Below are positions 2,709 through 15,654 of a DNA stretch of 64,000 nucleotides, one piece after another. The stretch is from Escherichia virus TH47. Each line of letters opens with the position of its first letter. Position 1 is the stretch's first letter. Where the stretch lies: sequence record MT446416.1. One strand, given 5' to 3'. The position numbers were made by a program, and so were the translations under genes. The notes under the pieces are model-generated. The model saw only the letters and a program-made list of their open reading frames with translations. It ran no database searches and was not told the origin of the DNA.

Positions 2709-2726
2709 TTTTTGTTTCCTCTTAGT

Positions 2727-2782
2727 GGGGGAACCATTCCCCTTGATGTAATGTATTATACTTTATCTGATTTACTTTGCAA
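2727..2782 (-). promoter_or_regulatory. early promoter + stem-loop module
   Basis: TTGCAA-N16-TATAAT; hairpin GGGGGAACCATTCCCC. Confidence 0.6.
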
Positions 2783-2790
2783 GTACTTTT

Positions 2791-3018: not shown

Positions 3019-3038
3019 TGTTTTGATTCCTTTTATTT

Positions 3039-3103
3039 GGAGGGGAAACTGTTTCCCCCCCTCTCGATGTAAAACATTATACGCTAATCTCTTTATAGTG
3101 CAA
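3039..3103 (-). promoter_or_regulatory. early promoter + stem-loop module
   Basis: TTGCAC-N16-TATAAT; hairpin GGAGGGGAAACTGTTTCCCCCC. Confidence 0.6.
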
Positions 3104-3253
3104 GTACTTTTTATTACTTTTTGCAAAATACTTTAAACGCTCTCAATCGCTCTATAACAACATTAACGCCACCAGCTAGGGAAATGCATCAGATATTCAG
3201 TTTAATGCGTTAGAATCGTTTCTAGGCGGTGCTGGTGGCCTGGTAAACGGTAA

Positions 3254-3282
3254 ACACAAAAAATCCCACTGTTTAAGGTGGG
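3254..3282 (-). terminator. rho-independent terminator
   Basis: minus-strand hairpin CCCACCTTAAACAGTGGG followed by T-run, just after stop of 3306..3788. Confidence 0.6.
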
Positions 3283-3305
3283 CTAGTGATTCAGTACTTT
3301 AATTG

Positions 3306-3788
3306 TTATGCTTCAACTTTGCGATGAGCTTCGATCCATTCCTCGCGAGTCAATCCGCTTTCTTTGATAGCATCCAGTACTACCGAAATGCAGTTACCAC
3401 GCACCGGAATCAGATATTCTTCCCCGTTATCAAGTACTACCGCTACACGTTCTTGAATCCATTTTTTAGGCTTAGACTCCGGCTTATCTTCCCCATACTT
3501 AACCGCCAGGGCTTTTTGTGCCATCTCGGTAACTACTTCCATATCCAGCCCATCTACTACCGCCTGGATACTTTCAATTGTTGCTTGTAGTTCTGCTTCA
3601 CGGGCCGCCTTCGCTGCTTCAATCTCTGCCGCTTTATTTGCTTGTAGTTCTTTCGCAGTACTGTAAGCGATGTTAAAATTATTGCGAACCGCTTTCATGG
3701 TATCGTTATCCAGTTCAGCCAGGATCTCTGCCGCTACGTTAGTTTCATTTGCTACCAGTGCTTTGATGAATGATTTGATGTTAGCCAT
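3306..3788 (-). CDS. hypothetical coiled-coil protein (160 aa)
   Basis: ATG at 3788 with GAGGA RBS 8 nt upstream (ORF-track start is a TTG further up); Ala/Glu/Lys-rich heptad-like N-terminal half. Confidence 0.6.
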   Translation of the reverse strand: MANIKSFIKALVANETNVAAEILAELDNDTMKAVRNNFNIAYSTAKELQANKAAEIEAAKAAREAELQATIESIQAVVDGLDMEVVTEMAQKALAVKYGEDKPESKPKKWIQERVAVVLDNGEEYLIPVRGNCISVVLDAIKESGLTREEWIEAHRKVEA

Positions 3789-3889
3789 TAGATAAATCCT
3801 CAATTAAAGTTTAGTTTACGTTCATTAGTGTATCAAAGTTTAATCGACGTGTCCAGTTTTTCGTTCGACTTACTGGCGGTCTACTTAGT

Positions 3890-3939
3890 GTTCCCCGTCT
3901 TGATGTAATACATTCTACGCCTTTTTGCGGTAATGTCAA
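3890..3939 (-). promoter_or_regulatory. early promoter (degenerate module)
   Basis: TTGACA-N17-TAGAAT on minus strand; -35 abuts the stop codon of the HNH gene. Confidence 0.5.
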
Positions 3940-4500
3940 CTATCTTTTTGAATATTTTTTAATGTATCTCATAATCGCTGGCGGTGTAGTATTATACCTT
4001 TCAGCTAGTATAATTGAGTTAGCATCATGTGAATATGGTTTATACAGTTGTATAACTTCGTTAATCTCTTTTTCAGTTAGTTTTGTCCTAACATGCCTTA
4101 TACCTTCACTCTCATACTTCACTATTTTTTTAATAGGCGTTGCGTCGTCATGTATTCCGGTATCGTGTGCGTGTATTATGTTTTCCTTTCCGGTTGACCA
4201 TTCCAAATTACTGTAATGATTATTACTTTTATTTCTATCCTTATGATTAACCTGGACTTTCTTTCTTTTTGTTTTTTGTGCCCATTCTATTTGTGCAGGT
4301 GTCGGAGGGGGTAGATAGTTGGATGCAACCAATCTTTGAACATACTCAAAATGTTTTGATTTGTCTTCTCTTACAAGCGTTAATCTATGATACCCATCAG
4401 GGCGAATTGTTGGAGAAAGAATATTACTACCATAACGCCTAACATCCCCATACTCACTAATTTCATAAAGGGGATTCTCTTTTAATTGTTTCCATTCCAT
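3940..4500 (-). CDS. HNH homing endonuclease (I-HmuI/I-TevIII-like)
   Basis: N-terminal MEWKxLK..YEISEYG..DGYHRLTL and HNH core VNHKDRNKSNNHYSNLEWSTGKEN resemble the I-HmuI family (from memory). Confidence 0.8.
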   Translation of the reverse strand: MEWKQLKENPLYEISEYGDVRRYGSNILSPTIRPDGYHRLTLVREDKSKHFEYVQRLVASNYLPPPTPAQIEWAQKTKRKKVQVNHKDRNKSNNHYSNLEWSTGKENIIHAHDTGIHDDATPIKKIVKYESEGIRHVRTKLTEKEINEVIQLYKPYSHDANSIILAERYNTTPPAIMRYIKKYSKR

Positions 4501-4529
4501 TGATTTGATCCTTTTAGTTTCTCCTTTGT

Positions 4530-4574
4530 ATTATATCACACAAAAACAAAAAAAGCCCACTGTTTAAGGTGGGC
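4530..4574 (-). promoter_or_regulatory. terminator followed by extended -10 promoter
   Basis: hairpin GCCCACCTTAAACAGTGGGC + T-run, then TGTGATATAAT and RBS of the HNH gene. Confidence 0.55.
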
Positions 4575-4581
4575 TAGTGAT

Positions 4582-4881
4582 TTATAAACAGTTAATTACT
4601 CCTGTGTGCGTTACTTTCTCAGTATCCATTACAGTGACCGAACCGCGTTTAGTACTGGCATCATAATAAATTGTTGTGCTACCTTTCGCATCTTCTTCAT
4701 GGAACGGGCCGTTTTTAAATGCTTCTGGCTGGATCTCTAGATCCTTTAAAACAATATCGCCAGTTCTTTCTTCGGTCATTGCAACAGTGCACTGAATGAA
4801 TTTTTCACTACTTACATCTAACGACGCATTAACAGCGAAAGAGGAAACAGATAAAGCCAGGGAGATGATTGCTACTTTCAT
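4582..4881 (-). CDS. secreted small protein (99 aa)
   Basis: ATG at 4881 with AAGGA RBS; N-terminal signal-peptide-like MKVAIISLALSVSSFAVNA. Confidence 0.6.
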   Translation of the reverse strand: MKVAIISLALSVSSFAVNASLDVSSEKFIQCTVAMTEERTGDIVLKDLEIQPEAFKNGPFHEEDAKGSTTIYYDASTKRGSVTVMDTEKVTHTGVINCL

Positions 4882-4901
4882 TTGATTATCCTTAGTTACC
4901 A

Positions 4902-4955
4902 GGGGAACCGTTCCCCCTATGTAAAACATTATACGCGTTTAAAAACTATTATCAA
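4902..4955 (-). promoter_or_regulatory. early promoter + stem-loop module
   Basis: TTGATA-N16-TATAAT; hairpin GGGGAACCGTTCCCC. Confidence 0.6.
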
Positions 4956-4989
4956 GTACTTTAATATAAAAGTATTTGAAAAATAATTG

Positions 4990-5018
4990 TTGACAACTGC
5001 ATCCAGTACTGGCATAAT
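4990..5018 (+). promoter_or_regulatory. plus-strand sigma70-like promoter (CCAGTACTGG class)
   Basis: TTGACA-N17-CATAAT with CCAGTACTGG in spacer; back-to-back with minus module. Confidence 0.5.
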
Positions 5019-5024
5019 ACCTAC

Positions 5025-5118
5025 ATAAAGACAAAACAGTCTCCAACCCACCGGGTGCATAGATCCGTCTATTAAATGATTCAGTACTGCAAAATAAAGG
5101 GGATCAATTGATCCCCTC
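5025..5118 (+). ncRNA. candidate small RNA
   Basis: runs from promoter 4990-5018 through CCCACCGGGTGCA box (5047-5059) to perfect palindromic hairpin GGGGATCAATTGATCCCC (5099-5116); no ORF. Confidence 0.3.
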
Positions 5119-5122
5119 TGTA

Positions 5123-5344
5123 TTACTTAGTAAGGTATAAACAGAAGTCACCTTTATTTGCTACGCCGCCAGTGTAACGCGATGAATAGTTAGAAATATC
5201 TTGTACTTCTGCTATTACCAGTGTATCATCATTCATTTCGTCGCAGAAGCAAACGGCTGGATCTTTTACGCCGATATTGTCGGCATGTTCCCGCATAGAT
5301 TTAACCAGTGCTTCCAGTTGAGAAAGAGTAGTGATATTAGCCAT
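5123..5344 (-). CDS. hypothetical protein (73 aa)
   Basis: ATG at 5344 with GAGGA RBS; terminated by hairpin 5099-5116 + T-run. Confidence 0.55.
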   Translation of the reverse strand: MANITTLSQLEALVKSMREHADNIGVKDPAVCFCDEMNDDTLVIAEVQDISNYSSRYTGGVANKGDFCLYLTK

Positions 5345-5363
5345 TGTATTTTCCTCATTACCA

Positions 5364-5422
5364 GGGAGAACCATTTCTCCCCTCTATGTAAACTATTATA
5401 CAGTACTGGAAACTAATTGCAA
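5364..5422 (-). promoter_or_regulatory. early promoter + stem-loop module
   Basis: TTGCAA-N16-TATAAT; hairpin GGGAGAACCATTTCTCCC. Confidence 0.6.
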
Positions 5423-5534
5423 GTACTTAATGGTAAGATCCGCAACGGTTGCAGTAGTTTTATTTGTTCGATCATGATGCTTACTCCTGGTTAAAGGCGG
5501 GAACCATTCCCCGCCATTGTCACAGTACTGAATA

Positions 5535-5774
5535 TTACATTCCAACCATTGCAGCACGGATCGCAGTAGTGCTATACTTGAATCCGTCCGGCGTTGTAGT
5601 AGTACCGTTGGCTTTTAATCTGCGGTACATACATTCCGCTGCAATATCTTTCGTTTTACTTTGAGCGATGCAATTTTGAGCAATCCGGTACAATGATTCA
5701 TCGTTATTGATCCAAAGGCTTACATTCCAATGAGTTTTGTTTTTGTGTCCGTTGTAAGTTTTAGTACTAGCCAT
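5535..5774 (-). CDS. hypothetical protein (79 aa), paralog of 7563..7790
   Basis: shared motif T(K)T(F/Y)NGHKNxxHWNVSLWINNDESLY and C-terminal AAMVGM; GAGGA RBS. Confidence 0.7.
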   Translation of the reverse strand: MASTKTYNGHKNKTHWNVSLWINNDESLYRIAQNCIAQSKTKDIAAECMYRRLKANGTTTTPDGFKYSTTAIRAAMVGM

Positions 5775-5795
5775 TTTTTAATCCTCTTATATAGT

Positions 5796-5852
5796 GGGGA
5801 ACTATTCCCCACCTGATGTAAAGTATTATACGCTTTTAAACTTAGTTTGCAA
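5796..5852 (-). promoter_or_regulatory. early promoter + stem-loop module
   Basis: TTGCAA-N16-TATAAT; hairpin GGGGAACTATTCCCC; near-identical to module 7153-7209. Confidence 0.6.
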
Positions 5853-5863
5853 GTACTTTTTAA

Positions 5864-6475
5864 TTAATATGCGATTGATTCTACTACGCCATCAATAACA
5901 TTGAATTGATATTCGTTACCCTCAATCAGTGCCGTAATGTTTTCAGTAGTGAATTGATCCTTATATGCATTCTCTAAATCACGGTAAAACTTGCGTGACA
6001 ATTCACGAATAGTATCAGTTAGTAGTTTCTCAAGCTCATTAACTAACGTTTCTTGTTTTGAGGTTAAATCAGTGTAAGCCGATTCAATGTACCCGCTTAC
6101 AGTGTTCTCATGCGAGTAATGGGAGTGAGATCGCTTTACACTCATCGCCAAATCATCTTCATTCAGCAGGTGACGGATTGAGCGATACTTAGTTAATGCT
6201 CTTACCTTGCGTAAAAACTTCACTGCGTCAACGTGGTCAGTACTGATTGATGCACCGTCACCCTGGGACCAAAAACCACTGAATTGTATTTCAGCGTCAT
6301 TAATGCCATATTCTGGTAGTACTGTTTCTTTATAGTATTCAATTTCACTTTCAGAAAAATAATCGTCGTTTGTGTTTTTTTCACGTTCCCGAACCAGTTC
6401 GATAGCTGACGTTTTTTGTTCTGCGTTCAATTCAGAAAAATCCATAACATAAGTAGTAGTAGTGATAGTTTTCAT
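5864..6475 (-). CDS. hypothetical acidic protein (203 aa)
   Basis: ATG with GAGGG RBS; Asp/Glu-rich; two tandem promoters upstream. Confidence 0.65.
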   Translation of the reverse strand: MKTITTTTYVMDFSELNAEQKTSAIELVREREKNTNDDYFSESEIEYYKETVLPEYGINDAEIQFSGFWSQGDGASISTDHVDAVKFLRKVRALTKYRSIRHLLNEDDLAMSVKRSHSHYSHENTVSGYIESAYTDLTSKQETLVNELEKLLTDTIRELSRKFYRDLENAYKDQFTTENITALIEGNEYQFNVIDGVVESIAY

Positions 6476-6507
6476 TTTGTAACCCTCATTCAGTAGTTGA
6501 TGTAAGT

Positions 6508-6535
6508 ATTATACGCTTTTAAAAACAATTGTCAA
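6508..6535 (-). promoter_or_regulatory. sigma70-like promoter
   Basis: TTGACA-N16-TATAAT directly upstream of 5864..6475. Confidence 0.55.
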
Positions 6536-6586
6536 ACTATTTTATCAGGGGAGTTTTTCGTATGCCTTACTCCTGGGCTACTCAAC

Positions 6587-6653
6587 GGGGAGTTACTTAT
6601 TTCGTTCCCCGTCCTGATGTAATACATTATACGCCGTTAAACATAGTATGCAA
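6587..6653 (-). promoter_or_regulatory. early promoter + stem-loop module (second, tandem)
   Basis: TTGCAT-N16-TATAAT; hairpin GGGGAGTTACTTATTTCGTTCCCC; no ORF between it and the next promoter. Confidence 0.5.
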
Positions 6654-6696
6654 GTACTTTTTAAAATAGTTTTCAGTACTGAATAGTAAAAAGGTA

Positions 6697-6725
6697 TTGA
6701 CAGCACTATCCAGTACTGGCATAAT
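6697..6725 (+). promoter_or_regulatory. plus-strand promoter (CCAGTACTGG class)
   Basis: TTGACA-N17-CATAAT; followed by CCCACCGGGTGCA at 6747-6759. Confidence 0.5.
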
Positions 6726-6840
6726 ATACCCCATGACAACAGCTAACCCACCGGGTGCACAATTGTAACTGTACTAAACTACTTTTTCTATAGATACACT
6801 CCCGCACCCCGTGGGCCAAATTGTTCGTTTCAATAGATAC

Positions 6841-6869
6841 ATTATGCCAGTACTGACAAAATAAGTCAA
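6841..6869 (-). promoter_or_regulatory. minus-strand promoter (CCAGTACTGG class), convergent with 6697-6725
   Basis: TTGACT-N17-CATAAT on minus strand; followed by inverted CCCACGGGGTGCGG box (6804-6817). Confidence 0.5.
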
Positions 6870-6899
6870 TACTGGCAATTGTAAAGATTTGTAAACTAC

Positions 6900-7130
6900 T
6901 TATACTGCAATCGCGTCCAGGCTATAATAATAATAAGTGCCGTATTGGTGTACTTTATTACCTTTTATTTCAGTACTGAATGAATCCGAACGATTAGCAT
7001 ATGATGTTAATTTAAAGTACTTTGCTTTACTAATACGTTGCCATACACCGCAGATCCGCTGTAAGTAAGTAGTTTTATTAGTGGTAGTATCTTTTACGGT
7101 TTTAACTTCGGTCATATACATATTAGCCAT
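6900..7130 (-). CDS. hypothetical protein (76 aa)
   Basis: ATG at 7130 with AAGAGGA RBS; module upstream. Confidence 0.6.
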   Translation of the reverse strand: MANMYMTEVKTVKDTTTNKTTYLQRICGVWQRISKAKYFKLTSYANRSDSFSTEIKGNKVHQYGTYYYYSLDAIAV

Positions 7131-7152
7131 TTTTTTAATCCTCTTATGTAGT

Positions 7153-7209
7153 GGGGAAGTATTCCCCATCTGATATAAAGTATTATACGCTTTTAAACTT
7201 AGTATGCAA
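7153..7209 (-). promoter_or_regulatory. early promoter + stem-loop module
   Basis: TTGCAT-N16-TATAAT; hairpin GGGGAAGTATTCCCC. Confidence 0.6.
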
Positions 7210-7217
7210 GTACTTTT

Positions 7218-7481
7218 TTATAGTACTGCAATCTTTTTAGTACGGTACACGGTAACGCGATTGCCCTTGCGGTCGTGCTTTATTTCTACTACTCGCCGCG
7301 ATACACTATCAGGACTTTTTAACGCCGCCAACCAGTACTGTAAAGATCTGGCTTTACTTTGCTTTACTACCGCCCAACGTTTACCACGTTCCGATTGTCC
7401 GCCCATATCTTTAAACGTCGCCCCGTCCAGACGTGCGGCGATCCGTGCTTGTTCACGCGTCACAAAGTACATAATATTCAT
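7218..7481 (-). CDS. hypothetical basic protein (87 aa)
   Basis: ATG start; promoter-like TTGCAC...TATAAT upstream. Confidence 0.55.
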   Translation of the reverse strand: MNIMYFVTREQARIAARLDGATFKDMGGQSERGKRWAVVKQSKARSLQYWLAALKSPDSVSRRVVEIKHDRKGNRVTVYRTKKIAVL

Positions 7482-7562
7482 GCTGTTACCCCATCGTTGA
7501 CGTATAAAAGAAATCTATTATAAAGTACTATCACCGTGCAATAGTACTTTAAATATATTCTA

Positions 7563-7790
7563 TTACATTCCAACCATCGCCGCACGCACGCTTGATTTGC
7601 TATAACGTGCCCCATCAGGCGTGTGAGTACCTAAAAGGCGTAACATCCGCTCAACCGCTTTATCTCGCGTGTTGGTGCTTTTAATACTTTCCAGGGCCAA
7701 TTGGTACAGTGATTCATCGTTATTGATCCAAAGGCTTACATTCCAATGGTTGTAGTTTTTATGGCCGTTGAAAGTTTTAGTAGTAGTCAT
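7563..7790 (-). CDS. hypothetical protein (75 aa), paralog of 5535..5774
   Basis: paralog motifs as above; AAGAGGAA RBS. Confidence 0.7.
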   Translation of the reverse strand: MTTTKTFNGHKNYNHWNVSLWINNDESLYQLALESIKSTNTRDKAVERMLRLLGTHTPDGARYSKSSVRAAMVGM

Positions 7791-7810
7791 TTTTAATTCC
7801 TCTTAAGTGC

Positions 7811-7870
7811 AGCGGGAACCATTCCCGCTCTCGATGTAATACATTATACGCTATTTGATAGTACTGTCAA
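7811..7870 (-). promoter_or_regulatory. early promoter + stem-loop module
   Basis: TTGACA-N16-TATAAT; hairpin AGCGGGAACCATTCCCGCT; about 50 nt identical to module 8270-8330. Confidence 0.6.
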
Positions 7871-7883
7871 ACTAATTTTTAAC

Positions 7884-8246
7884 TTATTCGTAAATTTTGC
7901 CACTGTCAGCCCATACCAGGAAACGAGGCATATTATCCCATGCATCTTGTTTTAAATTTAAACCGTGTAATACTTCTGTACTTTCCATTCCTGGTACTGG
8001 TTTACTATACACCGCGAACATTTCACCCATATACTGATAAGCCATCGTTAAATCACTGGCGATCATCTTATGGATCATCGCATCAAGCATCACGGTAGCG
8101 GCGTATTGTTCACGCTTAAGCGGCAACATTGCAATAAGTCCACGATAAGCTGAAATGTGAATTTTTACCGTTTCTGCCGGAAGATCTTTCATCTCGTCGC
8201 GGAAGTTAACCAGGTTAGCAATAATTTTATTGATTTGTGTCGCCAT
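7884..8246 (-). CDS. hypothetical protein (120 aa)
   Basis: ATG with RBS; module upstream. Confidence 0.65.
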   Translation of the reverse strand: MATQINKIIANLVNFRDEMKDLPAETVKIHISAYRGLIAMLPLKREQYAATVMLDAMIHKMIASDLTMAYQYMGEMFAVYSKPVPGMESTEVLHGLNLKQDAWDNMPRFLVWADSGKIYE

Positions 8247-8269
8247 CGTTTTTAATCTCTCTTAAAGTG

Positions 8270-8330
8270 CAGCGGGAACCATTCCCGCTCTCGATGTAAT
8301 ACATTATACGCCGTTAAACATAGTATGCAA
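8270..8330 (-). promoter_or_regulatory. early promoter + stem-loop module
   Basis: TTGCAT-N16-TATAAT; hairpin AGCGGGAACCATTCCCGCT. Confidence 0.6.
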
Positions 8331-8380
8331 GTACTTTCTACAAATACTTTTAAAATAGTTTTCTTTCTATATAGGGGAAC

Positions 8381-8432
8381 TATCTTTCAGTACTATCTTT
8401 CAGTACTATCATTCAGTACTATCATTCAGTAC
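8381..8432. repeat. 4 x 13-bp direct repeat TATC(T/A)TTCAGTAC
   Basis: four contiguous units read directly. Confidence 0.85.
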
Positions 8433-8596
8433 TGAATCAATCCACTAAATCATCCCTATACCCCGTAAAACGGCCTCAGACGCATTCTAACGCATTAATA
8501 CACCTAAGCTATACATTTGCACCATTCCAATCATTCCAGGGCTTTACGGGCCGTTGAAACGCGTTAAATTATTTTCAATTATTTTGTTTTTAGGTA

Positions 8597-8624
8597 TTGA
8601 CTTGATCCTGAAAAAGCGTATAAT
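8597..8624 (+). promoter_or_regulatory. plus-strand sigma70-like promoter
   Basis: TTGACT-N16-TATAAT; CCCACAGGGTGCGG box about 30 nt downstream. Confidence 0.5.
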
Positions 8625-8813
8625 TACTACATAAGCCGGACACAAGGCACTAACCCACAGGGTGCGGAATTACGCCCAAAATTCAAGATATAAAAAAAGG
8701 ATACACTCCCGCACCCTAGCAGGTCAACGCACTTTCTCAGTACTGAAATATAGTACCATAGTACTTGCCAGGATAGCAAGCAAATTAATTAAAACTTTTT
8801 TGCTTCCAGGGTA

Positions 8814-8841
8814 TTGCTTTATTTTTTCAGTACTGTATAAT
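8814..8841 (+). promoter_or_regulatory. plus-strand promoter
   Basis: TTGCTT-N16-TATAAT; CCCACCGGGTGCA box at 8870-8882. Confidence 0.45.
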
Positions 8842-8937
8842 AGTTTCATCAAGTCGAGAAAGACTCAAGCCCACCGGGTGCATAGTTACGCCCAAAATTC
8901 AGTACTGAAAAAATTTTTAAAATATCTGTCCAGGCCG

Positions 8938-8966
8938 TTGACATTGCCCCCAGTTTATAAGATAAT
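8938..8966 (+). promoter_or_regulatory. plus-strand promoter
   Basis: TTGACA-N17-GATAAT; two GGGGAA...TCCCC-type hairpins downstream. Confidence 0.45.
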
Positions 8967-9059
8967 GATTCCAGATTCAGAAAAATCTAACTCCAGATAC
9001 TGCGGGGAAACTATCCCCACGCGGTAGGGGAACTATTGGAAAAAACAAAATAAAATTTT

Positions 9060-9200
9060 GATTTAGCCGTCTATACTTCCAGACGTGTAACCATCTAGCC
9101 GTTTAGCCGTCCAAACGTCTAGCCATCCAGCCATCCAGAAATCTAGCCGTTTAGCCGTCTAGATGGATAGCCATCTTTACTTCCATACTTCTGGAGGTCT
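9060..9200. repeat. iteron cluster (TAGCCRTY x about 9) with CCAAAATCC repeats just downstream
   Basis: tagccgtc / tagccgtt / tagccatc units within about 130 bp, interleaved with tctaga-type palindromes. Confidence 0.8.
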
Positions 9201-10099
9201 AGACATATCTACGTCCAAAATCCACCCAGGGTTACTACACCCAAAATCCGTCAGTACTATACCATAGATCTATCTTTTGAAAGGGAGTATTCAGTACTGC
9301 CATCATAGCCCTCACTATGTTACCCTAGGAGGATGAAGACTATCATGTAGTACTGAATACTGTTAGAGGGAATCCACCAGCTTGTGCTGGTGGCATAATG
9401 CTTTAGATTAAAATCAGTACTGACACCATTCTGTTAATATCAGTACTGTTATTACGATTTTCATATGAGGTTCAAAAAGATGTACCACCACAGGAGGAAC
9501 TATCTTTTCTGTACTGTCTCACGACAGGAGGTAGAGTAAATGAATTGTTCGCAGCAACTCATCTCTCTATGTAGAACATTATACAGTACTGAATCATAAT
9601 GTCAATAACTTTCTTTCACCATTCAGTACTGATATTCTTGAGAACTACCCGTCTACAAACATCATTATATCCCACAAATCATAAACGTCCCAACGTAAAT
9701 TTCAACTTTCGAAGATCCAACTTTTATTTCATAGGTACTCCAAAATTTTTAGGATCGAGATTTAGGATGGAGTACTAACCAACTTTTTGCTGGAGCCTCA
9801 AGGGGTAATTGAATTTTACCCCGAAGGGTAAAAGGGTAATTGAAATTAAGGTGAAAGTAATAATTCAGTACTAATCATTGCGTGATTACTTTTGATTACA
9901 TTTGATGTAATTTGCAAAATGGAAAAGGAGCTTGGAAACTAAAAAGTACGGTAGACTTCCTCTGCCTACTTAGTGGGATATCGACACCTTCAGTACTGAA
10001 TACTTTTGGGGCAGTACTGCTACGTTCTTGATTAAACGTGCACATTCCTGTACTCTATTACACTCTAGTACTCACTACTGATCAGTACTGATCACTACA

Positions 10100-10150
10100 G
10101 TGATTATAAATGATTACTTAAATGTTTATATATGATTACTTATGATTACT
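10100..10150. repeat. ATGATTACTTA direct repeats (3 copies)
   Basis: read directly. Confidence 0.7.
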
Positions 10151-10154
10151 TATG

Positions 10155-10175
10155 ACAAAGAGAAGCCAAAAGCTT
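10155..10175 (-). terminator. terminator of small-gene array
   Basis: hairpin GAGAAGC-nnnn-GCTTCTC followed by T-rich tract on minus strand. Confidence 0.5.
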
Positions 10176-10312
10176 CTCTGTAGAGTTACGGGGTTTAGCC
10201 TGGAGAGAATCCTAGTGATCGCATTTGTCCAGGCTGAATTTTAACAATTCGCCTGTACATAAAGGTTGTTCACTAGGAGCTTCCCCAGTCTCTATGTGCT
10301 CTATATGTTGAA

Positions 10313-10522
10313 TTACTTCCTATATATAAGTATTAACATATAGTAGTACTGATTATGCTGTACATTCTCTTTAATATTATAAGGGTCTATAGCAATCTCG
10401 GTACATCTGTTAAATGCATATCTATTAAATGCCAGTACTATTAGATTGTTAACCCATGCTTGTTCGTTTTCTTTTAGTTTACTTATATAGTACTCTTTAT
10501 ACTCTTTATACTCTTTATGCAT
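10313..10522 (-). CDS. small leader-family protein (69 aa)
   Basis: N-terminal MHKEYKEYKEYYISKL (9-bp unit repeated 3 times); C-terminal hydrophobic YxLILIY. Confidence 0.6.
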   Translation of the reverse strand: MHKEYKEYKEYYISKLKENEQAWVNNLIVLAFNRYAFNRCTEIAIDPYNIKENVQHNQYYYMLILIYRK

Positions 10523-10535
10523 AGTATTATCTCTA

Positions 10536-10718
10536 TTAATATGATAGTACTAGTGTTAGTACTGAGCACAATTGTTCTTTATAGTTCTTAGGGTATATAG
10601 AATCTTTTATGCACTCATTGAAGTGCCATAGGTATAATCTTGGGTCGCATTCTTTATATATTTTTACGGGGACGAATGTTAGTTTTCTTATATAGAAGTC
10701 TTTATGTTCTTTATTCAT
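10536..10718 (-). CDS. small leader-family protein (60 aa)
   Basis: MNKEHKDFYIRKL leader. Confidence 0.6.
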   Translation of the reverse strand: MNKEHKDFYIRKLTFVPVKIYKECDPRLYLWHFNECIKDSIYPKNYKEQLCSVLTLVLSY

Positions 10719-10920
10719 ATAGGAATAGTATACCTATGATGCCTGAGTACAGGTTAGTACTGTTATTATTGTCGTTTGCGTTTAAAGTCATTTGAATACA
10801 ATTATTGTAGCATAATCTGCCGAAATATGTATCAGTACTTAAAGGTGGTGTAGTTCTTAGAAACATTTGTTCTGATGTACTGAGGTGTTTGGAGTAGTAT
10901 TCTTTATGTTCTTTATTCAT
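10711..10920 (-). CDS. small leader-family protein (69 aa)
   Basis: MNKEHKEYYSKHL leader; body paralogous to 11285..11491 (CYNNCIQ...YSGIIGILFLYE). Confidence 0.65.
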   Translation of the reverse strand: MNKEHKEYYSKHLSTSEQMFLRTTPPLSTDTYFGRLCYNNCIQMTLNANDNNNSTNLYSGIIGILFLYE

Positions 10921-10925
10921 ATTAG

Positions 10926-11111
10926 TTAGTGTCTGTATATAAGTAATAGTAAGAATACGTACTGCACCTGTTCATCTTTAGTATTGAGTACTGTACGTAT
11001 TGCGTCATGGAACAAGAATATAGTACTTGGGTCATTAGAATTTAAGGGGTTTACGGGGACGGCGTGTTTGTAGTTCCCTTTAACAAATTGTATATAGTAT
11101 TCTTTATACAT
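10926..11111 (-). CDS. small leader-family protein (61 aa)
   Basis: MYKEYYIQFV leader. Confidence 0.6.
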   Translation of the reverse strand: MYKEYYIQFVKGNYKHAVPVNPLNSNDPSTIFLFHDAIRTVLNTKDEQVQYVFLLLLIYRH

Positions 11112-11112
11112 A

Positions 11113-11292
11113 TTAGTACCTGAATATTAGGGCGAGAATGTAGTACATATAATTTTGGTTCACAGCACAGTCAGTATGGTCAATGAATTGTTGGGTCTTT
11201 TTCTTATCCTTGAAATCTATTGGGTTTAGTAGTATAAGCATTTGGGAGTTTATATCCAGATGGCTTACGTAGAATTCTTTATAGTTATTCAT
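11113..11292 (-). CDS. small leader-family protein (59 aa)
   Basis: MNNYKEFYVSHL leader; ATGAATAA start/stop overlap with upstream gene; below ORF-track cutoff. Confidence 0.5.
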   Translation of the reverse strand: MNNYKEFYVSHLDINSQMLILLNPIDFKDKKKTQQFIDHTDCAVNQNYMYYILALIFRY

Positions 11293-11491
11293 AGAAGAAT
11301 ATTAGTCCTATTACACCTGAGTACATAATATTTTTGTTATTGTATTCTAATGCGTCTAGAGTACTACGTATACAATTATTAAAGCAATCTCTGGCGTGTT
11401 GTGTATCTAAACGTAAAGGTGATACACTCCTTAGAAACATTTGTTCTTCGTTGCTGAGGTATTTGGTGTAGAATTCTTTCTGTTCGTTCAT
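11285..11491 (-). CDS. small leader-family protein (68 aa)
   Basis: MNEQKEFYTKYL leader; CFNNCIR...YSGVIGLIFFYE. Confidence 0.65.
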   Translation of the reverse strand: MNEQKEFYTKYLSNEEQMFLRSVSPLRLDTQHARDCFNNCIRSTLDALEYNNKNIMYSGVIGLIFFYE

Positions 11492-11501
11492 ATTGGCCTC
11501 T

Positions 11502-11690
11502 TTAGTACACGAAAGCTAGGTACAGTACATGATACAGTACTTGATTATAGTTGTAATAATTTATCACGCATTTAGTGCACGTAATGAAGTAGTCTTTTTC
11601 GTAGTTTATTTCTATACCGCGAGGTTCATCTTCTAACAGATTACCTTGAAGGTGCGGTGGTAAATCTTTTATGTAGTATTCTTTATACAT
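11502..11690 (-). CDS. small leader-family protein (62 aa)
   Basis: conserved start MYKEYYIKDL at 11690; ORF-track N-terminal extension is read-through of the upstream copy. Confidence 0.55.
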   Translation of the reverse strand: MYKEYYIKDLPPHLQGNLLEDEPRGIEINYEKDYFITCTKCVINYYNYNQVLYHVLYLAFVY

Positions 11691-11691
11691 A

Positions 11692-11882
11692 TTAGTACCT
11701 GAATATAAGTAGGATAGTGTTATATAGTTGGTCATAACTACTACTATTTTCTATACTGCGTTCTATGCAGTTATTGAATCCCAGTACTGCCAAATCGTTA
11801 TCCAGGGGGGGACTTTATATCTGGCGTAGTATTCAAAAATGCTGGGGAGAAATTGTGTGTAGTATTCTTTGTGGTTGTTCAT
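11692..11882 (-). pseudogene. frameshifted leader-family member (poly-G7 tract 11805-11811)
   Basis: starts MNNHKEYYTQFL; frame breaks at the homopolymer; one extra C/G restores a 63-aa ORF ending ...GFNNCIERSIENSSSYDQLYNTILLIFRY. Confidence 0.5.
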
Positions 11883-11892
11883 ATTGTTCTCT

Positions 11893-12075
11893 TTAGTACT
11901 TATATATTAGGGCGAGGATGTAGTACAGTTTATATATTCTATCCTCGTACATTAGGGTGTACTTAGTACATTCTTGAAACATTGTTTTTGCGTCATCTTT
12001 TATGCCCAATGCAACGTTTGGTATATGGCTCTGTAGATGCATTGGAAGTTTCTCTATGTAGTATTCTTTATACAT
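11893..12075 (-). CDS. small leader-family protein (60 aa)
   Basis: conserved start MYKEYYIEKL at 12075 (ATGTATAA overlap with stop of 12068..12739). Confidence 0.55.
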   Translation of the reverse strand: MYKEYYIEKLPMHLQSHIPNVALGIKDDAKTMFQECTKYTLMYEDRIYKLYYILALIYKY

Positions 12076-12739
12076 AGTTTGAAATATACGTAATGAGGTG
12101 ATGAATTTTCTTATCAGTACTGATAAGTTCCTGTACATGTTTTGTTAGTTTGTACGCGTTTTTATAGAGTCCTGGATTATCGATTACAGTACTGTACATG
12201 AATTCTTCTTCTGGTGTTAATTCTTTGTTTTGTAGTTCTTTTAGGAATTGCAGTACTGTAATAGTTTCTTCTGTACGTTGCTGTTGGAAGAAATGCATGT
12301 TATCGTGTACTTTTTCTGAACCAATGCAGTACATATCGCCGATTTGGAATTGTGCTGTACGGATATCATGGGTGCTATTACAATTCCCGAAGAAGTATAC
12401 ATTCCCGAAAGATAGAATTATAGTGCACGGGATATTATCCAGGTGCATATAGATATAGATAGATGCGTCCTCTAGTGCTTTTGTGCTGGTATTAGTACTC
12501 AATACTTTTAAATCAGTATTATAGATATTCATATAATGAACAGCTATATTATTTTTCTTCATGTACAATTCAAGGTTCTTTGATACGTTAACTCCATTTG
12601 TACTGGTTTTTTTACTTTTCTTTAGGTTCTTTAGTACATTAGGGTGATAAGTATATGCATTAGTAATAGATTCAGCCTGGATGGATTGCAAGTACTTAAA
12701 GTGCTGTAGGTATCGTTTACTTTGTGGATTGAGTTTCAT
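12068..12739 (-). CDS. long leader-family protein (223 aa)
   Basis: N-terminal KRYLQHFKYL leader-like; C-terminal domain paralogous to 21657..22307. Confidence 0.6.
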   Translation of the reverse strand: MKLNPQSKRYLQHFKYLQSIQAESITNAYTYHPNVLKNLKKSKKTSTNGVNVSKNLELYMKKNNIAVHYMNIYNTDLKVLSTNTSTKALEDASIYIYMHLDNIPCTIILSFGNVYFFGNCNSTHDIRTAQFQIGDMYCIGSEKVHDNMHFFQQQRTEETITVLQFLKELQNKELTPEEEFMYSTVIDNPGLYKNAYKLTKHVQELISTDKKIHHLITYISNYV

Positions 12740-12750
12740 ATTGGTTTCCT

Positions 12751-12930
12751 TTATATAGATGCGAGTGCGAGGATTTCCCTGTAGGGATTATCTTGTGTTA
12801 GTGCGTGATGAATGCAGCTATTGAGATTAATATTTTTAGTACTGTTAGTTGCTAGGTTGTAGTACTTCACGAAGGTGTCGTACATGAAACGGTCTTTAAT
12901 GCTTATGTGTTCTATATAGTATTCTTGCAT
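12751..12930 (-). CDS. small leader-family protein (59 aa)
   Basis: conserved start MQEYYIEHI at 12930. Confidence 0.5.
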   Translation of the reverse strand: MQEYYIEHISIKDRFMYDTFVKYYNLATNSTKNINLNSCIHHALTQDNPYREILALASI

Positions 12931-12995
12931 ATTATTCCTTAGATTTAGATTAGTTTTAGTACTTCTCTGTACGTGTACTTTTCGTTTTGTGCTTC

Positions 12996-13118
12996 TACTG
13001 TACATGATAGAAAGTATCGTTTTTATCTCTTTTGTTCCCGACTGTGTAGTACCTTTGGAATTGATTATAAATGTATCTATCTTTGTGCTGAAGTTTATAG
13101 ATATAGAATTCTTGCATA
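12996..13118 (-). pseudogene. truncated leader-family copy
   Basis: MQEFYIYKL... ORF of 40 codons; flanking sequence duplicates 12921-12980. Confidence 0.35.
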
Positions 13119-13125
13119 GAGTACC

Positions 13126-13311
13126 TTAGATAGAGATTAGTTTTAGTACTTCAATATATGTGCGGTACTCTGCTTTAATTAAATTTGTACACACTGTAAG
13201 GGAACTTCTTTGTATAAGTTTATTGCCGCTTTTATACGCATTTCTCCACACATAGAGATGAGATCTTTCTGGCATAGATAGTTTATTTGTATAGTACTCA
13301 AATGTATTCAT
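13126..13311 (-). CDS. small leader-family protein (61 aa)
   Basis: start MNTFEYYTNKL at 13311. Confidence 0.5.
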   Translation of the reverse strand: MNTFEYYTNKLSMPERSHLYVWRNAYKSGNKLIQRSSLTVCTNLIKAEYRTYIEVLKLISI

Positions 13312-13321
13312 AGTATTCTCT

Positions 13322-13507
13322 TTACATATCAATAAGTTTCAGTACTGCTCTGTACGTGTACTTAGTTGTTAGTGTTTCTTTTATAGCAGTACAGAAGTAA
13401 TGTTGTTTGTCTCTAGTACTGACGCGTTTGTAGTACCATACATGGGAGTTGTGGCTGTACTTGTCCCTGTCGGATAGTTTTTGGTAATAGTAGCTTTTAT
13501 GATTCAT
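13322..13507 (-). CDS. small leader-family protein (61 aa)
   Basis: MNHKSYYYQKL leader. Confidence 0.55.
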   Translation of the reverse strand: MNHKSYYYQKLSDRDKYSHNSHVWYYKRVSTRDKQHYFCTAIKETLTTKYTYRAVLKLIDM

Positions 13508-13618
13508 TGTAATGTAATTAGCCTTATTATGTTAAAGTACTCGGTCCCTGGTACACCTTGTAGAATATTATCAACTACATTTATTTGGTGCAGGATGAGT
13601 ACATTCGGTGCGGATCTT

Positions 13619-13717
13619 TTAAGGTTTTTTTAAAGTACTGAATTCTTGTTTAAGGATGTTCTGCACATCTTTAGGGAGAATATCTAAGTAGTACTGATGA
13701 ATGTTCATAGTTTTCAT
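13619..13717 (-). pseudogene. truncated leader-family copy
   Basis: MKTMNIHQYYLDILPKD... stops after 32 codons; resembles N-terminus of 13916..14128. Confidence 0.35.
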
Positions 13718-13728
13718 ATAGTACTCTT

Positions 13729-13914
13729 TTAGAACTTAAAGATGAGGTTCATGATAGATAAGTACTTAGTTTCAGGAAATTGATGTTCTATTGCATAACG
13801 TGTCGCCAGTCTGAAGTCAAATTTATAAAAGGGAGTATTCATATCCAGAGGTTCATTGGGGAATGAATCTCGGTATTGCTTGTGCAGCTTACTACAGTAG
13901 AATTCTTTATACAT
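13729..13914 (-). CDS. small leader-family protein (61 aa)
   Basis: MYKEFYCSKL leader. Confidence 0.6.
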   Translation of the reverse strand: MYKEFYCSKLHKQYRDSFPNEPLDMNTPFYKFDFRLATRYAIEHQFPETKYLSIMNLIFKF

Positions 13915-13915
13915 A

Positions 13916-14128
13916 TTAGTGCTCGATTAATAGGGTAAGGATGTAATAGTATTGCATACTTTCTACCCCTTGTAAAGCATTTCTTATTTTATTATTCCTG
14001 TACGAGTTCAAGAGTTTAGGACAATGTTTGAGGTTTATATAATTATTTTGTGTATACAGTAGGCTTTCTCGTAGACCTTTTGTTGGTAGTGCATCGATGT
14101 AGTACTGTTCAATGTTCATAGTGTTCAT
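13916..14128 (-). CDS. small leader-family protein (70 aa)
   Basis: MNTMNIEQYYIDAL leader. Confidence 0.55.
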   Translation of the reverse strand: MNTMNIEQYYIDALPTKGLRESLLYTQNNYINLKHCPKLLNSYRNNKIRNALQGVESMQYYYILTLLIEH

Positions 14129-14352
14129 AGAGCTACCAGTACTAAGATTTTTGATAATTGTTTATTGCTATCCCCGCAGATGTTGCTGTGTAAAATACTC
14201 GCGGTGAGGGTATCAAGTGCACTGTTCAGCATAAGGTTACATCCAGTACTGTTATGTGTTTTTAGCTCTATCAGCCACGAACTATCCGCGAGAAACTTCG
14301 CGTACTCTAGTTCAGTTAGAGTATTGATGTAGTACTTAAGTGTAGTTGTCAT
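14125..14352 (-). CDS. small leader-family protein (75 aa), first gene of array
   Basis: MTTTLKYYINTL; AAGGAG RBS; promoter 14378-14406. Confidence 0.6.
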   Translation of the reverse strand: MTTTLKYYINTLTELEYAKFLADSSWLIELKTHNSTGCNLMLNSALDTLTASILHSNICGDSNKQLSKILVLVAL

Positions 14353-14377
14353 GTACAGTTCTCCTTATATTCCTTCT

Positions 14378-14406
14378 ATAGTACACCAGTACTGAAAGGA
14401 TGTCAA
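14378..14406 (-). promoter_or_regulatory. promoter of small-gene array
   Basis: TTGACA-N17-TACTAT on minus strand, divergent from the first RCC1-like gene promoter. Confidence 0.55.
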
Positions 14407-14410
14407 GGGT

Positions 14411-14450
14411 TTTGTTTATGGGGTAAATATGATATAATGAATAAAGGAGG
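14411..14450 (+). promoter_or_regulatory. promoter/RBS cassette of RCC1-like gene 1
   Basis: TTGTTT-N16-TATAAT then AAGGAGG 5 nt before ATG; same TATAAT-AAGGAGG cassette upstream of genes 3, 4 and 6. Confidence 0.5.
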
Positions 14451-14455
14451 GAAAT

Positions 14456-15577
14456 ATGTTACCTTTTGTTAGAATGTTTGATTATGGAAATGAAGCACCT
14501 GATCCTAGTTCGGGATTTCGAATAATAAGTACAGGAGACGCATTACTATTAATTACTGAGAGTGGTGATTTGTGGGTGCGTGGTTATAACCGTTATGGCA
14601 AGTTAGGTATAGGTAATAACACCACTACCTATGTACTTGATTGGACGAAGGTTAGAAGTGATGTGAAGTTTGCGTGTGGTAGTGGATTGGTAACAGTTAT
14701 CTTTACTAAGGATAATCGTATATTGTACTGTGGTGACAAATGGTTTGAAACGGGTGGTGTTGGTAGTGCACAGATTTTCACATGGACAGATGTTACGCAC
14801 CAATTTGGGGTAGTAGATTTGAGTACAGTAAGGGATATGAAAATGTCTTATTACACGATTGGATTATTGACTACTAATAATCAATTATACGCTAAGGGAT
14901 TTGATAATAACCTATCATTTGGTGGGGTTACTAATAAGGCGACTGCTGTGTTTATTGCGAATAATGTACAAGAGTTGTATACGAGTTTAGTTAGTACTAT
15001 CTACGTTGATACAAGTGGTATATTACATCGTTGTGGCATGAGTGATAACGGTTCGTTGGGTAATAATGGTAGTTTAACTTCGTATCTAAGTTATTCACAG
15101 CCTGGTATGACGATTAAGGACATTGGAATGATGACTACGAACACTGGGTTATTATATACTGATTCTAGTGCACGCACGAGATATTTTATTGCTGGACAGA
15201 ACTTGAATAAACAGATGGGTAATGCGGCGTCTGCGAGTGCCATTACGAGTACTTACACAGAGCTTTCTGGTAGTGTTGATAAGTTTTCTTCTTTATGGGA
15301 GAATGATGGGATATTGATGACATTTGCTGTGGGTAAGAACACTAATCAGTTATTTTATGCTGGGACGAATACTTTTCATGCGAGTGGTGGTGAATCTTCA
15401 TATGCGGATACATATGAGTTAGTCCCGATGGTGTTTAATGACATACAGGAAGTGTTATGTGCACAGCGTTTATCGGTGGTACATGATTCTACGAAGTGGT
15501 ATTACTGTGGTGATGCTAATTCAATGTATGGTTTACCGGACGTAAGTACTTTTACTGAGTTACCGTTGCCCTTTTAA
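14456..15577 (+). CDS. RCC1-like repeat (beta-propeller) protein, paralog 1
   Basis: 373 aa; leader MLPFVRMFDYGN; repeated G-x-N-x-x-G-x-LG-x-G blocks. Confidence 0.7.
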   Translation: MLPFVRMFDYGNEAPDPSSGFRIISTGDALLLITESGDLWVRGYNRYGKLGIGNNTTTYVLDWTKVRSDVKFACGSGLVTVIFTKDNRILYCGDKWFETGGVGSAQIFTWTDVTHQFGVVDLSTVRDMKMSYYTIGLLTTNNQLYAKGFDNNLSFGGVTNKATAVFIANNVQELYTSLVSTIYVDTSGILHRCGMSDNGSLGNNGSLTSYLSYSQPGMTIKDIGMMTTNTGLLYTDSSARTRYFIAGQNLNKQMGNAASASAITSTYTELSGSVDKFSSLWENDGILMTFAVGKNTNQLFYAGTNTFHASGGESSYADTYELVPMVFNDIQEVLCAQRLSVVHDSTKWYYCGDANSMYGLPDVSTFTELPLPF

Positions 15578-15585
15578 TAATAGGT

Positions 15586-15616
15586 CAGTACTGAAATATG
15601 TACTGGTATTTTTTGT
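15586..15616 (+). terminator. candidate terminator
   Basis: CAGTA...TACTG hairpin followed by T-run. Confidence 0.4.
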
Positions 15617-15654
15617 AAATACTATATAATTATTTTAATTTTGGAGATTTAATC

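Follow-up and report, generated by a model that had tools for sequence, protein, structure and literature searches.

A gene-free block of 2 kb lies at positions 8350-10300 of a 64,000-nucleotide (nt) stretch of DNA from Escherichia virus TH47 (sequence record MT446416.1); this whole stretch is referred to below as the window. The genes flanking the block are on the minus strand on both sides, as stated in an original prediction that was made from the sequence alone. That prediction also described the block as non-coding, and this description holds. None of the four longest open reading frames (ORFs) inside the block, including a 121-amino-acid GTG ORF, matches a PHROG family. In contrast, PHROG matches were obtained for all six flanking ORFs tested, in each case to families of unknown function. 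Moreover, alignments among relatives contain numerous indels in the block.

Judged by its closest matches, the window is that of an Asteriusvirus-type jumbo coliphage (121Q/PBECO4/G17 group). The near-matching records for the block (n = 34) share 88-95% identity with it across at least 80% of its length, and are ~350-kb coliphages and Salmonella phages of this group, which belongs to the genus Asteriusvirus. The motifs that had been listed within the block include four 13-bp direct repeats, three plus-strand promoter units, a cluster of about nine TAGCCRTY iterons, a CCACCAGC-TTGT-GCTGGTGG hairpin, and repeats of GGGTAATTGAA and ATGATTACTTA. By direct reading, all of them were located at or near the places to which they had been assigned, and the repeats are well in excess of chance. 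Overlooked were the commonest motif, CAGTACTG, the TGATTAC group at 9883-9915, and a genome end inside the block. Features with their coordinates are collected in Table 1.

We consider it probable that the block comprises the distal, non-coding end of an Asteriusvirus-type jumbo coliphage's direct terminal repeat (DTR) and the first ~330 bp of unique DNA, and that it is a composite region serving packaging, transcription and the recruitment of host factors.

Table 1. Features of the block and related elements elsewhere in the window (PWM, position weight matrix; TRF, Tandem Repeats Finder)
Feature	Position	Strand	Basis or remark
Promoter-like TTGCAT-16-TATAAT of first DTR gene (7884-8246)	8304-8330	-	read from sequence
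Four tandem 13-bp units ACTATC(T/A)TTCAGT	8379-8433		TRF, 4.2 copies, 97% matches
CAGTACTG, exact copies, plus near-copies	8427, 8738, 8828, 8900, 9292, 9415, 9441, 9584, 9624, 9991, 10012, 10083		motif count
P1, TTGACT-16-TATAAT	8597-8624	+	11/12 consensus
Two copies of TTACGCCCAAAATTC, further to those at 9209-9249	8670-8684, 8886-8900	+	repeat search
P2, TTGCTT-16-TATAAT, TG before second hexamer	8814-8841	+	read by eye
P3, TTGACA-17-GATAAT	8938-8966	+	11/12 consensus
19 in-register 8-bp units	9065-9216		PWM test, repeat search, TRF
Two copies of CTAC(G/A)(T/C)CCAAAATCC	9209-9249	+	repeat search
Perfect hairpin CCACCAGC-TTGT-GCTGGTGG, 8-bp stem	9375-9394		folding z = -2.9
Leftward promoter TTGACA-16-TATAAT, CAGTACTG in spacer	9578-9605	-	perfect 12/12 sigma-70 consensus
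Inverted repeat AGGTACTCC/GGAGTACT enclosing TTTAGGAT(C/G)GAG(A/T) twice	9734-9777		TRF 9748-9772; alignments
TGATTAC-type units, 10-bp period	9883-9915	+	TRF; 55-87 bp inside DNA end
Imperfect palindrome AAGTAcGGTAGA-cttcc-TCTGCCTACTT	9944-9971		fold; genome end, by homology, one base inside right edge
Second TGATTAC group, 10-bp period (ATGATTACTTA/TGATTAC)	10101-10155	+	TRF; 131-185 bp outside end, unique side
Second-class promoter-like sites	26853-26882, 28300-28329, 29688-29717, 31273-31302, 35326-35355, 42444-42473	-	sequence match

A packaged genome end inside the block, by homology

Five related records with duplicated ends begin or finish at the base that aligns to window position 9970. 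The G17 and WPEC5 records end at this base, and the BF17, vB_Ec-M-J and fEgEco12 records start at it, in reverse orientation. In the linear G17 record, 1-20,668 is identical to 350,150-370,817; this repeat was deduced from duplicated annotated features that are consistently 350,149 bp apart and from the recurrence of the left-end sequence at 350,150. The last bases of G17, ...CTCTGCCTACT, align to window 9970, and the counterpart of 8350-9970 has its second copy ~19-20.7 kb from the other G17 genome end. The vB_Ec-M-J record carries the annotation 'Direct Terminal Repeats' at 1-21,525. The block is present in two copies in at least 10 related records, and records of 366-386 kb carry it twice.

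Published data on relatives agree with these ends. The terminal repeat of G17 is supported by read coverage (PMC6563267), PhageTerm gives a DTR of 20,993 bp for fEgEco12 with ends confirmed by restriction digests (PMC13070987), and the Sharanji repeat is 20,668 bp according to PhageTerm (PMC11895373). Homology to the five relatives places the packaged genome end of the window between 9970 and 9971. Given these coincident ends, we assign 8350-9970 to the DTR, as its last 1.6 kb, and 9971-10300 to the start of unique DNA; within the virion, 8350-9970 would form the last 1.6 kb of one DNA end. A packaging site or virion DNA end was among the functions originally proposed for the block, and it is the one that the ends of relatives bear out.

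Three further properties of the DNA are consistent with a junction at 9970/9971. Conservation among relatives is high up to ~9982, or ~12 bp past the junction, and then collapses. In addition, the G+C fraction falls from 0.36-0.42 to 0.31-0.36, and GC skew changes sign, at 10,000-10,500. On the plus strand, GC skew lies at about +0.15 to +0.2 between 10.5 and 14 kb, compared with about -0.04 to -0.19 between 6 and 10 kb. The gene sets at 10300-14350 and at 1-8250 are both on the minus strand and have opposite coding-strand skews, with G+C about 5 points lower in the former.

The small-gene content of the repeat is, by alignment, highly variable, because only 25-57% of the first 25 kb of the window can be aligned to any one relative, whereas the non-coding end block is conserved. 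Across the span homologous to G17 4058-19037, the DTR gene region of the window (1-8350) is ~6.6 kb shorter.

A similar layout is found in more distant jumbo phages. In phages Muenster and fENko-Kae01, whose repeats are annotated from PhageTerm, the terminal ~0.8-1.3 kb is free of genes and the genes are oriented away from the end; fHe-Yen9-04 has the same kind of layout with ends that are not annotated. Short pieces of the block recur in the terminal repeats of Muenster, fENko-Kae01, fHe-Yen9-04 and CBB. The block therefore resembles the annotated DTRs of G17, vB_Ec-M-J, fEgEco12, Muenster, fENko-Kae01 and CBB both in homologous DNA and in the gene-free terminal stretch, and the position of the end is identical to that of the window in the Asteriusvirus members.

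The main identity of the block, as the end region of a long terminal repeat, already follows from the records and papers on relatives. Records of related jumbo phages annotate the repeat boundaries only, or nothing, and no description of the internal anatomy of the block was found in the records and publications consulted. What the present map adds is a position for the DNA end, candidate terminase recognition repeats, promoters for the terminal-repeat genes, and an operator-like palindrome that pervades the genome. It may thus turn an unannotated 2-kb gap in dozens of jumbo coliphage genomes, which are being considered for therapy, into a mapped functional region, with precise targets both for engineering and for work on the cutting and packaging of 350-kb genomes.

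Elements near the DNA end

The most conserved element near the end is the inverted repeat at 9734-9777; the overlapping segment 9700-9749 is 100% conserved in five Asteriusvirus sequences. The inverted repeat has 93% identity to DNA located 86-128 nt from the starts of the records of Klebsiella phage fENko-Kae01 and Salmonella phage Munch, and its fENko-Kae01 counterpart is within the annotated DTR. Two groups of TGATTAC-type units lie on opposite sides of the end, one in the repeat and one in unique DNA, and both occur at equal positions in G17. The GGGTAATTGAA repeat is present twice, at 9803 and 9834, with the first copy inside a GGGGTAA/TTACCCC hairpin (9802-9822).

In concatemers, terminase would recognize this region and cut at the edge of the imperfect palindrome at 9944-9971. 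The likeliest recognition sites are predicted to be the 10-bp-phased TGATTAC units on both sides, the conserved element at 9734-9777, or both.

An 8-bp array that resembles MetJ operators

The cluster of iterons in the original prediction is real, and is better described as an array with a strict 8-bp period, comprising 19 in-register units. The plurality consensus of the units is AGACGTCT, which is the met-box consensus of the Escherichia coli methionine repressor, MetJ. Sites were scored by using the half-box matrix for MetJ published by Augustus and Spicer, together with their site thresholds (PMC3228920), by which a site has at least two adjacent 8-bp boxes, each with at least one quarter of the consensus score, and a summed score at least equal to that of the consensus. 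In all, 17 of the 19 units pass, as a run of 14 consecutive boxes (9065-9176, 102.8 bits) and three more in phase (9185-9208, 17.8 bits). As a positive control in E. coli K-12, the metJ/metB operator (four boxes, 31.2 bits) and the metF operator (four boxes, 24.9 bits) were recovered. The only other site in the 64 kb scores 13.0 bits, and the maximum among 300 simulated 64-kb sequences is four boxes or 21.7 bits. The boxes of the array average 6.4 bits, which is within the range of natural operators (4.5-10.3). Related phages have 12-15 boxes, and the indels among them are multiples of 8 bp.

The array thus shares with the metJ/metB and metF operators its contiguous 8-bp units, strict register and AGACGTCT consensus, as well as a similar range of per-box scores and passage of the published site thresholds. 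It differs in box number (14 + 3, versus four in each of the two E. coli operators scored), in having C at position 3 in half of its units, and in its location. It begins ~90 nt downstream of the P3 start rather than over a promoter, and lies 754-905 bp from the DNA end, in the terminal repeat of a virulent phage rather than upstream of a methionine gene. Binding here is a prediction.

The array would be bound cooperatively by a protein of the ribbon-helix-helix type, most probably host MetJ with S-adenosylmethionine (SAM). A long nucleoprotein filament formed in this way could block convergent transcription, participate in a complex associated with the DNA end, or titrate MetJ. Relatives of the phage infect E. 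coli and Salmonella, and MetJ is confined to five gammaproteobacterial orders that include the enterobacteria. No phage-encoded MetJ was found by tblastn of E. coli MetJ against 50,697 phage records, in which the only matches were host-contaminated records. Literature searches revealed no relevant work that ties MetJ, the met box or AGACGTCT to phages or terminal repeats.

Perhaps, then, the iterons are a MetJ super-operator, an array of 17-19 boxes that recruits or titrates host MetJ (with SAM) at the genome end and belongs to a hitherto unnoticed class found in the DTRs of three phage families, represented by Rak2-like jumbo myoviruses, Demerecviridae and the T7-like Ermolevavirus PGT2. We put this forward tentatively, as a possibility that falls short of even chances. 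If it is true, the array could have a terminal-repeat function, such as end protection, junction processing or a transcriptional roadblock, or could derepress methionine and SAM synthesis, in either case coupled to a metabolic repressor of the host. If MetJ does bind, three phage families would have independently placed an operator array for a host metabolic repressor inside their terminal repeats.

Similar arrays in other phages

Arrays similar to that of the window are found in Eneladusvirus-type jumbo phages, in GAP32 and CBB, in Demerecviridae that infect Vibrio, Aeromonas and Providencia, and in the T7-like Ermolevavirus phages PGT2 and phiKT (Autographiviridae). In Providencia phage PR1, the array occupies 9624-9691 of the record, 770-840 bp from the inner end of a 10,461-bp long terminal repeat (LTR). 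The PGT2 array, at about nt 38-110, is inside the terminal repeat, 260 bp long, of this T7-like phage with a 42-kb genome. Thus, wherever ends are annotated (PR1, PGT2 and, via relatives, the window), the array is inside a terminal repeat. Aeromonas phage AhSzq-1 has 28 boxes (3537-3760 of the fetched stretch) and Vibrio phage Pontus has 15 (484-603 of the fetched stretch), both in non-coding DNA, whereas a location inside the terminal repeat is shown for PR1 and PGT2.

Hosts in the Enterobacterales, Vibrionales or Aeromonadales are named in 94 of the 95 array-bearing records, although the correlation is weaker than this raw count suggests because the tally rests on few lineages. MetJ homologues are reported in only five gammaproteobacterial orders, which include these three and do not include the xanthomonads; the single exception among the 95 records is labelled as a Xanthomonas phage.

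Promoters, leaders and possible transcripts

We defined near-consensus promoters as TTGACA-16/18-TATAAT with at least 11 of 12 positions matching. The window contains 31 such sites, against 5.2 expected, and this excess suggests that phage expression relies largely on the host sigma-70 polymerase. All four plus-strand near-consensus sites are in the DTR part (4990-8966), which has no plus-strand genes. The terminal-repeat gene set, which the block would control, consists of dozens of small genes on the minus strand; many of these have promoter-like sites and terminator-like hairpins of their own.

The three plus-strand promoters of the block are each followed by distinctive sequences. Downstream of P1 are a conserved box, AACCCACAGGGTGC (8652-8665), and a long stem, GGGTGCGG/CCGCACCC (8662-8717). 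The P2 spacer is filled by a copy of CAGTACTG (8828-8835) that adjoins the -10 hexamer, and a box, AAGCCCACCGGGTGC, follows at 8867-8881; the segment 8868-8910 has 90.7% identity to DNA within the terminal repeat of Pectobacterium phage CBB. P3 points into the 8-bp array by way of a structured leader of ~90 nt (8973-9064; fold z = -3.05), and Yersinia phage fHe-Yen9-04 has the same order of promoter, matching conserved leader motif and 8-bp array. P1, P2 and units at 4990 and 6697 constitute a four-copy paralogous family in which a promoter is followed, after ~25 nt, by the box AACCCACNGGGTGC. Plus-strand modules at 4985-5125 and 6692-6835 have the form TTGACA-N8-CCAGTACTGG-CATAAT followed by AACCCACCGGGTGC, and occupy intergenic gaps of the minus-strand DTR genes. 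The module at 4990 is directed at a GC hairpin (5101-5118; GGGGATC-aatt-GATCCCC), an arrangement that would suit an RNA of ~90 nt.

On the minus strand, the promoter at 9605-9578 is directed toward the array and the DTR genes and is convergent with P1-P3. The promoter-like site at 8330-8304 is followed by a GC hairpin leader and then a ribosome-binding site, and copies of this module are also found at 7843-7870/7800-7850 and at other places in the DTR. Its twin promoter (7870-7843) matches the consensus at 12 of 12 positions. The leader hairpin folds at -12.6 kcal/mol. Many small DTR genes have minus-strand leader modules, as at 7800-7870, 8260-8330, ~4900-4960, 5350-5420 and 6590-6650, in which a consensus promoter and then an ATGTA(A/T)TACATCGAGAG-type sequence precede a GC hairpin (AGCGGGAA-tgg-TTCCCGCT), with a ribosome-binding site and ATG next.

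The host sigma-70 polymerase would start leftward into the DTR genes at 9605-9578 and 8330-8304. P1-P3 would yield short non-coding transcripts, or perhaps act across the array to interfere with the 9605 promoter that converges with them. The original suggestion of a regulatory region stands at the level of sequence signals, which comprise divergent and convergent near-consensus sigma-70 promoters and an operator-like palindrome.

An Rfam search in E-value mode found no family at its gathering score in the block. The sole match was to skipping-rope RNA (19.7 bits, versus a gathering score of 36.7; E = 0.49). This match covers 8241-8299 on the minus strand, over the hairpin leader of the first DTR gene, and is most likely due to chance. 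ARAGORN reported no tRNA or tmRNA within the window.

The CAGTACTG palindrome

With 0.92 copies expected, the window contains 58 copies of the CAGTACTG palindrome, of which 12 are in the block. Its density is 2.2 per kb in 1-9970 and ~0.7 per kb beyond. The core, AGTACT, is found 228 times in the window, or ~10-fold more often than expectation as estimated from base composition, with 10.8 per kb in the block versus 3.6 per kb in the window, and it is present in coding and non-coding DNA alike. At nine promoter-like sites, CAGTACTG is in the spacer next to the -10 hexamer, in the arrangement TTGACA-N8-CAGTACTG-(G)-[T/C]ATAAT. Examples of its positions across the window are 1488, 5004, 5401, 6711, 6848, 8828, 9584, 32886 and 48190. 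The terminal blocks of fENko-Kae01 and Muenster also carry it.

This distribution makes CAGTACTG look like a candidate operator for a conserved DNA-binding protein. The palindrome, which fills the spacers of several promoters and is concentrated in the block, would act as an operator for a regulator. LexA and TrpR were considered as binding proteins and set aside, as the arrangement of half-sites does not fit their operators.

Comparison with the ends of T5 and T7

The closest analogue of the block is Repeat Region 3 of phage T5, which carries the injection stop signal that halts DNA transfer until the pre-early proteins A1/A2 act. This untranslated region of 1.2 kb is mostly in the LTR, extends 270 bp into unique DNA, contains repeats and palindromes, and is better conserved than the neighboring ORFs. 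The block likewise occupies over 1 kb, free of genes, at the inner end of a long DTR, overruns the repeat/unique junction by a similar distance (~330 bp), contains nested direct repeats together with inverted ones and palindromes, and is better conserved than the small genes next to it. In contrast, there is no detectable sequence similarity, and the block has neither DnaA boxes nor an IRD'-spacer-IRC' element, whereas the 8-bp met-box-like array and the CAGTACTG palindromes set it apart from the T5 region. The repeat is ~20 kb long in relatives of the block and 10 kb in T5, and the virus that carries the block is a ~350-kb myovirus. By analogy, then, the block may work like Repeat Region 3 without being a member of the same class. 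T5 itself, which the layout might suggest, was rejected as the source: the BLAST matches are Asteriusvirus, no Tequintavirus is among the matches listed, and T5 has no comparable array in its LTR end (8,500-11,000).

The ends of T7 carry a terminal repeat, the SRL and SRR short-repeat arrays, the early promoters A1-A3, and phiOL and phiOR. They resemble the block in having arrays of short direct repeats beside or inside the terminal repeat, promoters directed toward the concatemer junction, and a cluster of strong host-polymerase promoters in a gene-free leader near the DNA end. However, the T7 unit sequence differs, its spacing is longer and irregular whereas the array here is in strict 8-bp register, and the T7 terminal repeat is only 160 bp. 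No promoters for a phage RNA polymerase were identified in the block. T7 ends appear to be a looser analogue than T5 Repeat Region 3.

Evidence against the proposed functions and alternative explanations

Several observations weigh against a composite end region that recruits MetJ. The end at 9970 is deduced from relatives of 92-94% identity rather than from reads of this phage, and terminase binding, transcript starts and MetJ binding are sequence predictions for the whole phage group. The terminal repeat of UE-S1 was published as 8,298 bp (PMC12805682; record ON568341), which differs from the repeats of 20-21.5 kb in the five other Asteriusvirus phages for which a length was stated or measured; the block is at 117.5-119.6 kb in that record. 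The authors of the fEgEco12 study doubt this value and consider it probably mis-assigned (PMC13070987), and for this reason we set aside its conflict with the ~20-kb repeats. Promoter-like sites overall are no more numerous in 7500-11000 than in shuffled sequences (11 versus 12.1), with enrichment confined to the near-perfect ones, and the hairpin at 9375-9394 is not a classical terminator because it has no T-run. About half of the array units have C in place of A at met-box position 3 (AGCC), which is found in 10% of natural half-boxes (PMC3228920), and the AGCC/GTCT asymmetry is unexpected for a symmetric dimer. Finally, no such array was found in the fetched stretches of the Muenster and fENko-Kae01 termini.

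The asymmetry is among the reasons to consider instead that a phage protein binds the array, either a small one of the ribbon-helix-helix type or one like a terminase small subunit, with a specificity that resembles the met box by coincidence, and that the array serves as an omega/ParG/ParR-type 'centromere' for packaging or segregation. Ribbon-helix-helix proteins such as omega and ParG bind tandem arrays of 7-8 bp. The consistent asymmetry is not what selection by a symmetric MetJ dimer would produce, the array is always within terminal repeats, which suggests a role related to ends, and the Xanthomonas phage label falls outside the MetJ-bearing orders. However, the array-bearing phages span three families that would not be expected to have a protein of this kind in common, all other array-bearing records name hosts from MetJ-bearing orders, the boxes score in the range of genuine E. 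coli operators with a plurality consensus of exactly AGACGTCT, and, apart from host contamination, the tblastn search revealed no MetJ homologue in phages. Also, par genes were not recognized among the six flanking ORFs. We therefore regard binding by a phage protein as unlikely. A partition site, as in the original prediction, is not supported: par genes were not recognized in these ORFs, the G17 annotation has nothing par-like near the block, the relatives are virulent, and like arrays occur in 42-kb virulent podoviruses.

A replication origin, which had also been proposed, is likewise not upheld. In that case, the array and other repeats would be iterons bound by an initiator, and the promoters would prime or activate unwinding. 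Dense direct repeats, strong promoters and AT-rich stretches would suit an origin, as would a change in the sign of GC skew near 10,000-10,500 despite minus-strand genes on either side. T4-type origins combine a promoter with an unwinding element, and origins are also found near the ends of T7, so an origin could coexist with an end region. Yet DnaA boxes (TTWTNCACA or the relaxed TNWTNCACA) are absent from 8350-10300 and from 1-9970, whereas the rest of the window has 11; the units are 8-mers that adjoin one another instead of iterons spaced at 17-22 bp, and no initiator-like gene was recognized in the six flanking ORFs tested, whose PHROGs are of unknown function only. Arrays of like kind are found in the 260-bp repeat of T7-like PGT2 and in the LTR of a T5-like phage, T5's own origins were mapped near the center of its genome, and the change in skew and G+C falls at the repeat/unique junction, where the gene set also changes. 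An origin thus appears improbable. The analogy to T5 Repeat Region 3 in position and build raises the prospect of an injection stop, at which the terminal repeat enters the cell first and transfer pauses at the block until early proteins are made. A repeat full of small, promoter-rich genes is of the kind expected for early functions, and the array of T5-like PR1 is at a comparable place near the inner LTR end. Nonetheless, the paired DnaA boxes that are conserved in the iss region of 25 of 25 T5-like phages compared are absent from the block, and no sequence similarity to T5 was found, with no Tequintavirus among the matches listed; an injection stop of the T5 type would have little chance of being correct. 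It is similarly doubtful, to about the same degree, that the block is purely a locus of transcriptional control or small RNAs, with non-coding RNAs from P1-P3, early-gene regulation, and a DNA end that coincides incidentally. The paralogous promoter-and-box family fits such a locus, as do the leader fold z-scores of -2 to -3 and the conservation of module pieces in Klebsiella and Pectobacterium jumbo phages. Moreover, the G-T/T-G pairs in the stem GGGTG/CGCCC form only on plus-strand RNA (by eye), and the A4/fEgEco12 variant keeps this stem. Against it are the lack of an Rfam family above its gathering score, the modest structure z-scores, and a P2 transcript that is no more stable than shuffles, and it leaves unexplained the five coincident genome ends, the conserved near-end element and the TGATTAC repeats that straddle the end.

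Other repeats and a second promoter class

Each of the tandem 13-bp units near the left edge of the block carries the CAGTACTA/G motif. The units are 50-105 bp upstream of the 8330-8304 promoter, and their copy number varies in alignments of relatives. The block has one match to the IHF consensus, with no enrichment.

The sequence CCAAAATYC is present four times in the block (8676, 8892, 9215 and 9241), versus five times in the whole 64 kb. The longer YTACRYCCAAAATYC also has four copies, at 8670, 8886, 9209 and 9235.

The loop of the perfect hairpin at 9375-9394 is TTGT in the window, BF17, vB_Ec-M-J and WPEC5, and ACAA in G17, 121Q, UE-S1 and fEgEco12. The two loops are reverse complements of each other and represent a flip of the whole palindrome between close relatives. 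The G17 counterpart is annotated as a terminator by ARNOLD. We rejected this hairpin as an intrinsic terminator, as a T-run is absent on both strands, and our own terminator scan did not call it.

A second class of repeated promoter is found outside the DTR. It comprises six nearly identical minus-strand sites of the form TTGACT-TCGGTC(A/G)GCC(C/T)TTTTTG(C/T)-TATAAT, with an 18-nt spacer.

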